Made by a program: the position numbers and the translations under genes | Part shown: one piece after another, positions 1,430-25,805 of the stretch | Position numbering within the stretch: position 1 is the stretch's first letter | How the letters are laid out: the number at the start of each line of letters is the position of its first letter | The notes under the pieces: model-generated | What the model was told of the DNA's origin: nothing | Seen by the model: only the letters and a program-made list of their open reading frames with translations | Database searches by the model: none | Assembly (NCBI GenBank): GCA_951406725.2 | Contig: OX597826.1 | Coordinates: 57,846,001 to 57,910,000 of the forward strand | Direction of reading: 5' to 3' | Source: Octopus vulgaris | Lineage: Eukaryota | Length of the DNA: 64,000 nt

Positions 1430-1633
1430 CAAAATGTGACCGCGTGTGTACCGTTGGCGATTTTTTCCTCCGTCTTCCCTTCTTTGGATCTTTCCTTTTC
1501 CTCTGTTTCTGACGAAGAGCTCCGCTCGAAACGTTAAACCCTCCTTCTTTCCTGAGCATCCAATAATACTATACTTGTTCCACGTCCTCGCGTTGTTGTG
1601 CTTTCTCTTTGTGTTTTCATGTTTGGATTAACT
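1430..1633 (+). mobile_element. Penelope-like pseudo-LTR fragment, family 1, inserted in (TA)n
   Basis: About 200-bp insert flanked by (TA)n on both sides, near-identical copy at 14723-14922, contains a minimal hammerhead motif. Confidence 0.7.
1505..1539 (+). ncRNA. Minimal type I hammerhead ribozyme, canonical C3:G8 core
   Basis: GTTT-CTGACGA-A-GAGC(TCC)GCTC-GAAA-CG-TT^AAAC: stem I GTTT/AAAC, stem II GAGC/GCTC, palindromic stem III ACGT, predicted cut after 1535. Confidence 0.75.
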
Positions 1634-2802
1634 ATATATATATATATATATATATATATATATATTCACACACACACACACACACACATTTAATAATCCC
1701 TTGTCAGAAATTCCTAAATCTGATAACTTCCAAATTCTGATTTATTTTTCCAAAGGACAGGCCCCACAAAAGCAAAAATTCCAGAAAGCGCTTAGAAGAT
1801 TATCTGAAAATTAGCCCGACGAGTTGTCAGCCGTCGTAAGTGACGTGATCTGCCCTGGGTTGAGTGAAAACGTAATACACGGATTTGTTTTCGATTAAAC
1901 ATGAAATGTTTTATAAGTAAAATTGTTATAAATGTAAAACTTGACAAGTGTCAAATTTATATAAAACTACCTCCACGTTCTATGGATGGACTCTTTTATG
2001 AATATAAAAACATAACATGTTTAAATTTAGATTCCATATACATGCTGTCCCTAATGTGCGGTTCGTGTCGATCCATAAGTGCTTTGGTGACTAGCGTCAA
2101 ACGCACGAAAACTTGAAGCATGAGGAAAATAATGCCGTTTACCAACACAGTTATGACTGTGCACGCATTTTAGCCGCTCTCGGCATTTCTTTTTGCTTTA
2201 TCAATTTGCGATAGTGAACAAATTATAGTAAAAAGCCAATTACTTATTGTAAGGTCGGCATATCGTTCTTGATATCTAGTTATAACCACTCTATTTATTT
2301 AATATCTGTCACATTTTAAGTTATTGGTCCTGTTTATAAAGACACGAGTATTTCATTCTTTCAACTGAGTGGCTTTTGTGTAACATAAGATATCTAATTG
2401 TAAAACTTATTTTGTTGAATAATCAGAATCTGCAAAACTATTCAATTATTAGAAAGATGTCTTTTTAATATACGCAAAAGAATAGAAGAAACTCGGCTGT
2501 AGTTTGAATGTGAGACTATTAAGTGGTAAATACATAGCATTTCTTTCATTCTGTAATATACTTGAACCAATTACGACCTCGATCTATAGCCGGAAAAAAT
2601 GTCGCTAATCATTTTGCCCGGCATGCTTAACAATTCTGGCAGTTGCCGCCTGAACACCGAGTTAATTTCCTTGTAGTATATAGTCACATCCTTTCACGTT
2701 CCGGATTCGATATTGCTTTGGTTGATAATTTGCCTCTCACCTTTCATTAGAATTTGTGGTCTCATGCGAAAGTTAGTAATCCTCATTTTTTTAGAAAGCG
2801 AT

Positions 2803-3440
2803 TAGTTTTGGCACAATAATAACCTGAAGAACAAAATAAAGATCAGCGTCTACAGGGCCGTGGTTCACACCACTCTTCTCTATGGCTCAGAGACCTAGAT
2901 CACTTACCGCAGTCACATCCGTCTCCTCGAGCGCTTCAACCAACGATGTCTCCGCACCATCCTCAACATACACGGGTGTGACTTCGTCACAAACATTGAA
3001 GTCTTGGAGTGGGCCGAGATGCCCAGCATTGAAGCCATGCTACTGAAGTCCCATCTCCGATGGGCAGGGCATGTCTCCAGATTGGAGAACCACCGCCTTC
3101 CTAAGATCGCCCTGTTTGGCGAACTCTCCACCGACCACCGAGTGAGAGGAGCTCCGAGGAAGCGCTACAAAGACTGCCTCGAGAAGTCTCTAACAGCAAG
3201 TCATGTTAACCACCAGTGCTGGTCAGACCTGGCTGCGGACCGTGATGTCTGGCGCCACACGATCTTCAACGCGCTCAGCAAGTTTGGGGAACAAAGAAGA
3301 GACGCGCTTAAAGACAAGAGACGCAGGAGGAAGGCGCAAGCCGCCTCTGTCACCACACCGGATGTTACCTACGTCTGTGGACACTGCTCACGGACCTACC
3401 TTTCCTATATCGGACTTGTCAGTCATGAGCGTGCATGCAC
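2803..3440 (+). mobile_element. RTE/BovB-clade LINE 3' fragment (post-RT region with C-terminal Zn knuckle)
   Basis: Translation KISVYRAVVHTTLLYGSET*...LRWAGHVSRLENHRLPKIALFGEL...CGHCSRTYLSYIGLVSHERAC. In-frame stop; GC-rich relative to flanks. Confidence 0.9.
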
Positions 3441-4979
3441 GCAAAATAGTCCAGTATCAAACGAAGATGTTTTACGGCATCTTTTAATTTTGTATTCAAA
3501 TTCGGTTTGGAATAAACTTTGCCTTTTATTCTTCAGGTAGCAGCAGAAGTCAATATAATGATTACCAGTAATATGCTAAGGTTGATTCAATCAACTGAGC
3601 ATACGAATCCAACAAAACTGAACTTACGGATAATCAAAAGAAATCATTTTTACAAGTCTATACTCTTTACGTTGTTATGGGTTAAACGAGTTTGACCTGG
3701 GTTTCAAATGTTTTAGGAAACCAATTCAAGACAATAATTGGTTGATTCTTCTGAAAAAAAAAAGGCTAAAAGAAGGAAAGAAAATATACATAAAAAATGT
3801 TATCGAATAAAAAAAATCAAGAGCTTTTATCTATTTTAGACAAATAGTGAAATACCAGTGAATGCAGAAATACAAGGAAGTATTGATTTCTAGGTAGAAA
3901 TACTGGTTTAAACCCCTATTTCTTTAAACTACAATCAACAGTCTATGTTTTGTTAGCAACTACTTATCAAGGCTTTGTAGATGTTGATATTTACAACTGG
4001 TTCTAAAAATATTTCCTCAGAATTGAAAATGTCAGCTTCCTTTTCCAAAGTCAAAGCAATTAGATCCTTAAAGAGTAAAATACTGGGAACAAAAAATCTT
4101 TTTTTAATATTTAAACAAATAAATAAAATTTGAAGTATTTTGTTGAAATCAAATAATTCTTAAATATAAGTAATAAAGACACATCTGATAAAAGTTACTT
4201 TTCGATAATAATCGTAAAGTGTATTATTAGAAGCGTACTTTTTTTTTTTTTTTCAGTTCGAAAAGAAATTAAATTTTTCGAAATTTTTCCTCAAAGCACT
4301 TTCTCTTTAAAGTAAAAATCTGTGGTTCCTTAGAAAGATGATGAAATATTTACTGATGGTTGAAGAAAAGTGGTTATGTAAAGTGTGAACTGTTAAACTG
4401 GCGAACCTGATACATAAAGTTAAATCATAAAGTTTTGGGGGCTTTTTTTTAATCCCTCGGGTGATGGACAATGAAACAAGCATTAGGATGGCGTATTTGA
4501 ATTTGAAGAGCAATCATCAACGTAGTACAAAATTTGTAAAGAAAACTTTAGCTTTGTTGAAATTTTCTCTACAAATTCTATATTGTGATTAGCATTCGGC
4601 ACGTGAAGCAATTAAGATTACAGGTACCCATACGAATATGATACCCTTTAAATATGGAAATACGATATTTATTGTGGTATATAACTGAAAAGAGACAGAA
4701 TGGAAGAATAAAATAAGGAGGAAAGCAAGAGCTTGATAAGTGAAAGAAAACGAAGAATGAAAGATCCAGTCAGATTGGCGAAATAGAACAAAAGCGCGAG
4801 GTAGCGATACAGGACGACAGAAAGAGTGAGAAGGAACTAATTAGAACTCCAGAGACAAAACGAAAGAAATAAGAGAGCGAGACGGAACGAAAGAAAGAAA
4901 GAGCTAGAGAGACGGAACAACATAGAACGTTAGAGAGAAAGAACATAGAATGCAAGAAAAACGGAAAGGAAAATATAGC

Positions 4980-5073
4980 GAGAGAGAGAGAGAGAGAGAG
5001 AGAGAGAGAGAGAGAGAGAGAGAGAGAGAGAGAGAGAGAGAGAGTGTGTGTGTGTGTGTGTGTGTGTGTGTGT
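4980..5073. repeat. (GA)n(GT)n compound microsatellite
   Basis: Direct reading. Confidence 0.95.
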
Positions 5074-5642
5074 AACAAACAAAATGAAAAATAAATAAAA
5101 ATTATGAAGAAAAAAAAGGCATCAAAAGTTGAAGGGGAAAAGTGAGATAAAAGAATATCTTCCACTGAAAAATGAAAATGCAAAATGTAAAAAGGACCAC
5201 AAAAATGAAAAAATGGGGTGCAAAATTAATAGCATTTACTTCATACATAGACTACAGAGATGAAACAGCTACTGTTATCACCACCACCACCACCACCATC
5301 ATACATATTTTTTTCTTTTCCCCTCATTAATTCTAAATAATAAGGTAACCTGTATAGAAAAATAGAACCCTAAAGGATCTTTAAACGCACGCGTACATCT
5401 GTACGTACACACATAAATCTGATTATATAAATACATATGCATCTGTATAAATATATGTATACATAAATCTGTACACACAAATCTCAGATTGTGTATGGTG
5501 CGTGTGTGTGCCTGTAGAATGTATGTACGTGCTTGCGTGCTTGCATGCATACATCTGTATAAACGCATATATACACCTTTATATATATATATATATATAT
5601 ACAGGTACATATCTGTATGCACACACAATTATTAAAAAAAAA

Positions 5643-5902
5643 AGGGGGTGATTGGTAGGTGGGGGGGGGGGGGAAGAAAACAGCAGTAAGATATAACAAG
5701 TTCCTCTCGTTGCTAATAACATGGAATGCTAAGGGAGACACGAGCTTGTACATGCGAAGAAGGTAGAAAAACAAAGATTAAAGCGCAACAACTGCAAGAA
5801 GAGAACAACAGCAACAACAAGAACTGTTGCTATTACTACTGCTACTACTGCTACTGCTGCTGCTGCTGCTGCTGCTGCTGCTACACCTTCAACAAGGTAA
5901 GA
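5643..5902 (+). promoter_or_regulatory. Possible promoter and 5' first exon of an unidentified host transcript
   Basis: G-rich tract with reverse CCAAT (ATTGG), then non-TE sequence with CAA/CTA/CTG triplets ending in the strong donor AAG|GTAAGA at 5896/5897. Confidence 0.35.
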
Positions 5903-24921: not shown

Positions 24922-24950
24922 GTCCGTGCTGCATCTGATGCAGCACGGAC

Positions 24951-25000
24951 TTTGTCAGTGAACAGGTCGCGGATTTTAGCGACGAAAATATTTTGACAAA
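24951..25000 (+). ncRNA. Hammerhead fold, G3:C8 core variant (copy 2)
   Basis: TTTGTCA-GTGAACA-G-GTCGC(GGATTTTA)GCGAC-GAAA-ATAT-TT^TGACAAA: 7-bp stem I, 5-bp stem II, palindromic stem III AATATT. Confidence 0.7.
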
Positions 25001-25071
25001 TTAAACTTAAATGTTGGAGTGAATCGAACGGCTTTTGTGTGTTTCTTAAATGGCTTATATGCAGCACGGAC

Positions 25072-25121
25072 TTTGTCAGTGAACAGGTCGCGGATTTTAG
25101 CGACGAAAATATTTTGACAAA
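25072..25121 (+). ncRNA. Hammerhead fold, G3:C8 core variant (copy 3)
   Basis: Identical to copy 2, offset +121. Confidence 0.7.
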
Positions 25122-25767
25122 TTAAACTTAAATGTTGGAGTGAATCGAACGGCTTTTGTGTGTTTCTTAAATGGCTTATAAACACCTCCCACGCTGCAAT
25201 TGTTTTCGTTTCAGCACACGATCTCAGATCAAATTACTTGCTATGCGAGTACATCTCCGTAATATATATATATATATATATGTATAAGGGTGAAAAGGAA
25301 CACACGAGTTGATATATATGAAAAAACAAGTAAAAAATAGAAAATGTCGTCATAATCATCACCACCATCACCATCATCGTCATCTTCTCCTTCTCCTTCT
25401 TCTTCTTCTTCTTCTCCACCCCCTACCCCTTAAGTTTGTCACTAATGTTTTTTAGTATAACACCTACGCTAATTCTATAAACAAGCCTGTCAATATAAAT
25501 ATTCTCCTGAATTGAACTGAGACTGCCAGCCGCCACTGACCATTCAAAATACGACCATCAGGGCACTCCCAGATTCTCCCACCCCCTTTCCTCACCAGCC
25601 TTCCCTCTACTACCCTACCAAGAACTCACAAGTACCTCGAACACACAAGTGCAAACAAGGGAGTCAGAGAAAGGCAGAATGTCACTTAAATCTGAACACT
25701 ACTATAGAAATATTCTTTTAAAAAAACTTTTCTTCTAATTTTTCTAAATTTAATTATTTAATCGTTA

Positions 25768-25805
25768 CAGTTGAAAAGGTCTCAAAATGACCGAAACCGG
25801 TACTG
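25768..25805 (+). ncRNA. Hammerhead fold, U3:A8 core variant (family 3)
   Basis: CAG-TTGAAAA-GGTC(TCAAAAT)GACC-GAAA-CCGG-TA^CTG; lies about 55 bp before a (TA)n tract. Confidence 0.65.

Follow-up and report, generated by a model that had tools for sequence, protein, structure and literature searches.

The window analysed here is a stretch of 64,000 nucleotides (nt) from the genome of Octopus vulgaris (contig OX597826.1, positions 57,846,001 to 57,910,000), in which three dissimilar inserts carry hammerhead ribozyme folds, named here as motifs A (core at 1509), B (cores at 24958 and 25079, with a minus-strand copy having its G3 at 24914) and C (core at 25771). These hammerheads are the ends, or pseudo-long terminal repeats (pseudo-LTRs), of three autonomous protein-coding families of Penelope-like elements (PLEs) and not retrozymes. 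With good confidence, all three are regarded as minimal type I hammerheads, each family having a fixed Watson-Crick 3:8 pair of its own, that likely cut RNA slowly as dimers and are probably aided by protein in doing so. The genome comprises 2.8 Gb in 227 contigs, and the window has a G+C content of 29-40% with many microsatellites.

Hammerhead folds in the window and the elements that carry them

A scan of the whole window, in which any base was allowed at positions 3 and 8 of the minimal type I hammerhead, identified five folds and no others, the pairs being C:G at 1509, G:C at 24958 and 25079 (with the minus copy as the remaining B fold) and U:A at 25771. All of the cores named in an earlier sequence-only reading of this DNA were located, and the recovered folds lay far above the shuffle controls, in which 40 block-wise dinucleotide shuffles gave 1.05 matches per window for any fold and 0.025 where a palindrome and a stem II of at least 4 bp were required. 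The palindrome after GAAA and the unchanged hammerhead layout that had been claimed for the three inserts were likewise borne out by the scan. The cores CUGACGA (A), GUGAACA (B) and UUGAAAA (C) all show the type I arrangement N3-UGA-N-N8-A9 with GAAA, UH and a Watson-Crick 3:8 pair, the stems being within the type I ranges (stem I 3-7 bp, stem II 4-8 bp) and stem II being closed by G10.1-C11.1. Stem II is 4-5 bp long in all five folds (4 bp in A and C, 5 bp in B) and GAAA is followed by a palindrome in each of them (2 nt in A, 4 nt in B and C). An extra purine lies between A9 and stem II in A and B, and residue N17 is U in A and B and A in C.

Monomer folding returned a clear hammerhead for B (z -3.05), a hammerhead that was the lowest-energy structure but weak for C (z -1.26), and a lowest-energy structure that was not a hammerhead for A (z -1.25); co-folding gave a hammerhead-like intermolecular dimer for C and not for A or B. 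An Rfam scan of the window returned no hammerhead family among its 72 matches at E <= 1.

Full-length units were identified elsewhere in the genome for each family. At locus L038, two B hammerheads lie 4,261 nt apart around an open reading frame (ORF), P0001, which has the motifs of PLE reverse transcriptase (RT), a CX3CX2C linker and a GIY-YIG domain, this copy holding a stop and frameshifts of its own; P0001 has 162 homologues at E <= 1e-20, some of them labelled as RT-domain proteins. A full unit of family C (L108) has a period of 4,412 nt between hammerheads, and Pfam matches to RVT_1 (E 2.7e-8) and GIY-YIG (E 3.8e-4) were obtained for the family C ORF P0003, these domains being those of the ORF of 784 amino acids (aa) in L102. 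For family A, an A-related unit (L253) with a period of 5,898 nt carries an intact ORF of 949 aa (P0005) for which Pfam supports RT and GIY-YIG domains, and a decayed ORF upstream of a true A hammerhead (L237) is 80-90% identical to P0005 in most of its segments. The link to Penelope RT/GIY-YIG ORFs that had been proposed as a check is thereby shown in all three families. Pseudo-LTRs in direct repeat, with an inverted 5'-truncated partner and an optional tail, were seen in L038, L108, L253 and L257, and tandem and inverted arrangements with (TA)n flanks were found for A, B and C, with two 3' ends in B and C.

Features of the Neptune clade (a DKG motif, a CX2-5CxxC linker, a CCHH motif and (TA)n targets) are present in P0003 and P0005, that is, in families C and A. 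The proteins of B and of its sister family D, described below, have a compact Nematis-like CxxC linker, but they carry DKS in place of DKG and an insertion of ~45 aa between RT motifs 3 and 4.

The sequence-only reading had inferred a diversified set of self-cleaving retro-RNA families, which in its widest sense would be independent and retrozyme-like. Although most A and B copies are short and without an ORF, and one tandem duplication of 121 nt lies in the window, the short copies of each family match the ends of an ORF-bearing PLE, the two 3' ends included, and tandem arrays of hammerheads (150-400 nt) were absent from the examined loci. That wider sense is refuted for B and C, and hardly any chance is left to independent non-coding self-cleaving families.

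Other candidate ORFs were rejected. In L243 and L250, the ORFs located close to A hammerheads are those of C-like families and not of A, and an 820-aa ORF in L039 is that of an unrelated long interspersed nuclear element (LINE) of the APE-RT type; this LINE is near-intact (L039:813-3928). The A-related element of L253 contains a degenerate (CA)-rich 3' untranslated region (UTR) of ~2 kb (L253:1000-3050). In family C, two ORFs overlap by 60 nt in all four long copies (L108:4568-4628; L101, L102 and L104), with a slippery heptamer U-UUU-UUA in the right phase and without a predicted downstream structure, which makes a programmed -1 frameshift likely at this overlap.

Within the window, a short copy of family A (a pseudo-LTR piece of a Neptune-type PLE) flanked by (TA)n tracts covers 1430-1632 on the plus strand. 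It contains hammerhead A at 1505-1539 (plus strand), with stem I at 1505-1508/1536-1539, the core at 1509-1515 (C3:G8), an extra A at 1516, stem II at 1517-1520/1524-1527, GAAA at 1528-1531, the 2-nt palindrome, U16.1 at 1534 and U17 at 1535, after which the cut is predicted. A second A copy on the plus strand (14723-14921, 91% identical) has a decayed core at 14800-14806, in which U4 is changed to C, and is followed by (TA)n.

The B insertion consists of a fold-back and a duplication of 121 nt. Its inverted arm (24790-24936, minus strand) begins 15 nt before stem I, stops at the short 3' end and contains the minus copy of the hammerhead at 24872-24921. Arm 1 (24937-25058, plus strand), the first unit of the duplication, contains copy 1 at 24951-25000 (plus strand), with stem I at 24951-24957/24994-25000, the core at 24958-24964 (G3:C8), an extra G at 24965, stem II at 24966-24970/24979-24983, GAAA at 24984-24987, the 4-nt palindrome, U16.1 at 24992 and U17 at 24993, the predicted cut being after 24993. 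Arm 2 (25059-25263, plus strand) reaches the long 3' end, including a tail of ~58 nt, and holds copy 2 at 25072-25121 (plus strand, G3 at 25079), which has the same sequence as copy 1. A near-match to MIR3440 in Rfam at 24874-25000 was rejected, being the perfect fold-back of B and not a microRNA. A weak tRNA-like match (24421-24490, plus strand; 25.1 bits against a cut-off of 29 bits) situated 300 nt upstream of this insertion is possibly the head of a short interspersed nuclear element.

The C insertion is a truncated copy with an inverted tail. An inverted 3' end with tail (25278-25346, minus strand) is followed by a 5'-truncated copy (25346-25858, plus strand; 3' UTR and pseudo-LTR of a Neptune-type PLE) and then by (TA)n at 25859-25898. 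Hammerhead C (25764-25809, plus strand) has stem I at 25768-25770/25803-25805, extending beyond one A.A mismatch, the core at 25771-25777 (U3:A8), stem II at 25778-25781/25789-25792, GAAA at 25793-25796, the 4-nt palindrome, U16.1 at 25801 and A17 at 25802, after which the cut is predicted. No remnant of a PLE or LINE protein was found when looked for in the window. The window also has 14 frames of at least 150 aa.

The 3:8 pair across families and their relatives

Genome-wide counts were obtained with exact-match patterns having N at positions 3 and 8, the reversed-pattern controls giving 0 matches. Family A was found in 3,377 exact copies, the first 100 listed comprising 92 C:G, 6 C:A and 2 U:G with no compensatory change; family B in 1,050 (99 G:C and 1 U:C among the first 100 listed); and family C in 1,904 (99 U:A and 1 U:G among the first 100 listed). 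The 3:8 variants are consensus states of the families and not the decay of copies. The proposal that the differences at these positions are Watson-Crick and family-wide is thus confirmed, and a canonical CTGANGA consensus, which had been named as the contrary outcome, was not found for B and C, in which the consensus is G:C and U:A, respectively. As had also been foreseen, these two families escape a CUGANGA search, A being canonical. A subfamily of B that differs in loop II and shares the G3:C8 core was met at L092:1331, L118:308 and L182.

Covariation of positions 3 and 8 had further been claimed across the three inserts. All of their pairs are indeed Watson-Crick, but the proteins of the window families share 22-31% identity in local alignments, and families so distantly related provide weak evidence of covariation on their own. 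Better evidence comes from the sister families of B. Family D, whose protein is 54% identical to that of B and whose tail and ORF start are homologous to those of B, has 3,236 exact copies, with C3:G8 in 98 of the first 100 listed. Family E, in which the B/D tail is present, has U3:A8 in 20/23 copies, its pattern fixing one form of the extra base so that its copies number at least 23. A metagenome scan gave three loci, of which one was informative: L260, a relative 42% identical, has C3:G8 (L261 stops before the pseudo-LTR and L262 is a weak match). The sequence of stem II differs among B, D and E with pairing retained. In a direct alignment of the B and D pseudo-LTRs, the tail and ORF start were matched and the hammerhead was not, and homology of the two hammerheads rests on position and structure. 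Since D and L260 carry C:G and E carries U:A at the homologous place, the G3:C8 of B is likely to be a derived double swap; the tertiary 3:8 pair would then be under selection and would have been swapped at least two times. A C-like family (L250, 58%) has a decayed U3:A8 motif. Family D (L257:937 and L257:5525) is a young PLE of the B clade whose frames reach 1,312 aa; its helix III comprises 2 bp and is closed by a loop that is not palindromic, and CUGANGA searches miss the family.

Among the 256 examined loci (858 kb), the 3:8 pair was Watson-Crick in 9/10 distinct motif types (4 C:G, 4 U:A and 1 G:C; p 1.4e-4 at 0.3), a count from which single A and B copies that had decayed to a 3:8 mismatch (L051, L063 and L143) are excluded and in which five of the nine Watson-Crick types are not established as repeat families; three shuffles gave 1/8 Watson-Crick matches. 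These five types were met by chance in flanks (L032:4447, minus; L167:1126, plus; L186:876, minus; L194:1117, minus; L243:3557, plus), two being U3:A8 and three C3:G8, and the genome likely holds many more hammerhead families.

These results bear on the suggestion that the variant cores go back to dead master copies in which both positions had changed by chance and which were then amplified passively. Family B is very young, its best 40 matches being 99-100% identical, and a single master would explain the fixation of its pair. Against this stand the preponderance of Watson-Crick pairs among the motif types, the compensatory nature of the stem II changes and an alignment of 11 family C arms, in which the hammerhead had 1 variable column and the downstream flank 20/59, a comparison that is partly circular because the search pattern fixed part of the hammerhead, and whose upstream side is spoiled by one fold-back arm. 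Passive amplification of dead cores is accordingly held to be very improbable.

Probable origin of the short copies and predicted cleavage

The short copies were surveyed in 40 B loci with 58 arms and in 20 A copies, all chosen by position. Most A and B copies are pieces of ~200 nt without an ORF and with clustered 5' ends. In B, the start of 48/58 arms lies no more than 16 nt upstream of stem I (the mode of 15 nt is shared by 15 arms, with 9 at 14 and 2 at 13) and 8/58 extend at least 71 nt upstream; the 3' ends form two groups, 130-134 and 187-193 nt away when counted from where stem I begins, within the first ORF codons. In A, 19/20 copies begin at most 80 nt before stem I, with 6 at 76-80, and the limit at 78 nt falls on an initiator-like A. 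An extra G, where the element has T, was found in 13/15 of the modal B arms (p 6e-8 at 0.2) and occurs in some A and E copies as well; such a G is expected where RT copies a 5' cap. From the sharp 5' ends and the extra G, the short A and B copies are likely to have been reverse-transcribed from element RNA at its capped 5' end.

PLE transcription is known to begin in the upstream pseudo-LTR, and here its start would lie upstream of stem I by 15 nt in B and by 78 nt in A. Reverse transcription would start internally, at two sites just downstream of the hammerhead, comparable to the two internal RT starts that make the tail of an anole PLE (PMC11167929). Priming on the copy of these sites at the 5' end of the RNA would yield the solo copies of ~200 nt of which A and B mostly consist, and priming on the 3' copy would yield the long ones. 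We find it reasonably probable that solo hammerheads arise by such internal priming on the 5' copy; no published description of cap-derived solo PLE hammerhead copies was found in the literature searched.

The sharp 5' ends of B might alternatively derive from a 3' splice site, or from stalling or template switching of RT at the stem I hairpin. L038 has a branch-point-like motif, a pyrimidine tract and an AG end 13 nt before stem I, introns in PLE 5' UTRs are known, and many short B copies are fold-backs. However, the commonest B 5' end includes the AG, there is no shared upstream exon, the A ends cluster 62-80 nt from a weak hairpin at the initiator-like site, and the extra G is not confined to B. 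An origin by splicing or stalling is for these reasons considered rather unlikely, and a capped start is preferred. Many of the short B insertions (L117-L156) are near-perfect fold-backs of 130-190 bp joined at their 5' ends. If transcribed as part of host RNAs, these would give long hairpins, possibly serving as a source of small RNA or as editing targets.

With regard to cleavage, a full tandem transcript has two hammerheads, whose palindromes would allow them to pair and release a unit-length RNA. Weak cleavage as dimers is reported for PLE minimal hammerheads (PMC4209133). The double change C3G/G8C was described to partly rescue a PLE hammerhead, with protein being required (PMC11167929), and strong positive epistasis is given for the G:C swap (PMC9901934). 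B is predicted to be catalytically competent, which we consider likely. A C3-G17 pair acting as a trap (PMC3884650) serves as the model for predicted G3-C17 and U3-A17 traps; U17 in B would avoid the former, and U3 together with A17 in C might slow cleavage.

A mild excess of 5' ends was seen at the predicted cut, namely 8 B arms at 0-2 nt from it compared to 6 at 3-9 nt (30 of 31 matches lacking G12) and 5 C loci compared to 1 (10 stretches of 23 matches), an excess blurred by T- and TA-rich microhomology, with the C pattern covering one subfamily (1/11 sampled arms) and lacking a total denominator.

Several observations weigh against the interpretation favoured here. Ends at the cut are rare in both families, and nearly all copies span the predicted cut intact, so nearly all templates were uncut, as is expected if a lone minimal hammerhead is inactive. 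For the anole PLE, hammerhead mutants are reported to have left insertion in vitro unaffected and no RNA reads to have ended at the cut (PMC11167929), and in a passage on pairwise mutagenesis G:C gave rescue and U:A did not (PMC9901934). In family D, position 9 is C and not A in 96 of the first 100 listed copies and the palindrome is missing, and the family is still abundant. No ORF was found in the 20 E loci in which one was sought, E being joined to the B clade by its tail alone; the direction of the swap in B rests on two relatives without a tree; and a Pfam search of P0001 gave no match. As for the capped start, 8/13 of the extra G residues lie in fold-back junctions where the opposite arm offers a G (outside junctions the count is 5/7), and family C has no 5' hot spot near the hammerhead, D having a loose one.

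Some of these points would suit a fold retained as a structural signal, one that might serve, for instance, in translation or in PLE protein binding close to the RT starts, with cleavage incidental or absent and with 3:8 covarying because the fold needs it. Fewer than 1% of B copies begin at the cut, D prospers with C9 and without a palindrome, hammerhead mutants insert normally in vitro (PMC11167929), and Naiad PLEs spread without canonical hammerheads. Yet U4, G5, A6, GAAA and the UH triplet, which are important for the chemistry, are kept in 14/14 aligned rows, the excess of ends at the cut in B and C is present, if mild, and engineered and natural relatives cleave. A purely structural role is thus judged improbable, and slow, protein-aided cutting as dimers remains the preferred explanation.

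Significance and comparison with known systems

The sequence-only reading could not tell whether its families were already described. U3:A8 was published for PLE hammerheads in 2014 (PMC4209133) and for natural hammerheads in 2011 (PMC3088659), and the basic phenomenon is also known. No natural G3:C8 hammerhead family was found in the literature searched, the survey of Lunse et al. (2017) and Przybilski and Hammann (2007) being outside its reach. A is ordinary, C is a known variant and B, with good comparative support, is probably a natural variant not yet reported.

A more far-reaching proposal is put forward tentatively, as we give it less than an even chance: B would be the first natural G3:C8 family to be described, its ribozyme being active and fixed in ~1,000 young copies; its lineage, maybe an unnamed PLE clade, would toggle 3:8 among C:G, G:C and U:A and tolerate C9; and the solo minimal hammerheads that animal genomes contain in their thousands would largely be cap-end reverse transcripts of PLE mRNA made by internal priming, with the ribozyme placed just behind the cap. 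If true, a ribozyme in this position could decap or circularise RNA, and start and cut sites could be read from the genome. The tertiary 3:8 pair, known from structure and mutagenesis, gains support from evolution within a single family of related elements. Searches restricted to CUGANGA overlook whole young families, B, C and D among them, and claims that some PLE clades lack hammerheads depend on such descriptors and can be rechecked; Naiad and Chlamys elements are described as lacking them. The role of the PLE hammerhead also becomes directly testable in families that are young and nearly identical in sequence, have mapped 5' ends and two 3' ends, and differ naturally in their cores.

By all the features that could be compared, the octopus motifs are minimal hammerheads of the kind that Cervera and De la Pena (2014, PMC4209133) described in the pseudo-LTRs of metazoan PLEs. 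The two sets are alike in being of type I without a stable helix III, in having a palindrome after GAAA, an extra nucleotide after position 9 and G10.1-C11.1, and in occurring mostly as solo copies with some inverted pairs; the published U3:A8 variant has ~1,300 matches in Schistosoma mansoni. In contrast, G3:C8 is found in 0/56 rows of Fig. S3 of that paper, from which an octopus entry is absent, and in the octopus one lineage of sister families shows three different pairs, with 5' ends mapped for the solo copies. A similar 3:8 covariation in nature is reported by Perreault et al. (2011, PMC3088659), in a passage that names only U3:A8.

The Anolis element PAc, a Poseidon PLE (Frangieh et al. 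2024, PMC11167929), likewise has a hammerhead at the junction of pseudo-LTR and ORF, two RT starts that define the tail and AT-rich targets. There, G3:C8 was engineered and partly active, whereas here it is the natural state of the young family B, the tail of which is ~58 nt; templates were proposed to be multi-copy mRNA, and the accessible portions of that paper do not discuss 5'-end mini-copies. The Neptune and Nematis clades (Craig et al. 2021, PMC8557442) share with the octopus families a C-terminal GIY-YIG with a CX2-5CxxC linker and a CCHH motif, the use of (TA)n as target, and insertions in tandem or inverted order that have a tail on one side. The motifs of A and C agree with those of Neptune, while B and D have DKS and the ~45-aa insertion, which is lacking in the Nematis rows of that source. 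Finally, the animal non-LTR retrozymes (bioRxiv 10.64898/2026.07.22.740005) have type I hammerheads derived from PLE pseudo-LTRs; as described there, they are tandem ORF-less hammerhead units, whereas the octopus copies are the dispersed ends of coding elements with hammerheads 4.3-5.9 kb apart around ORFs.

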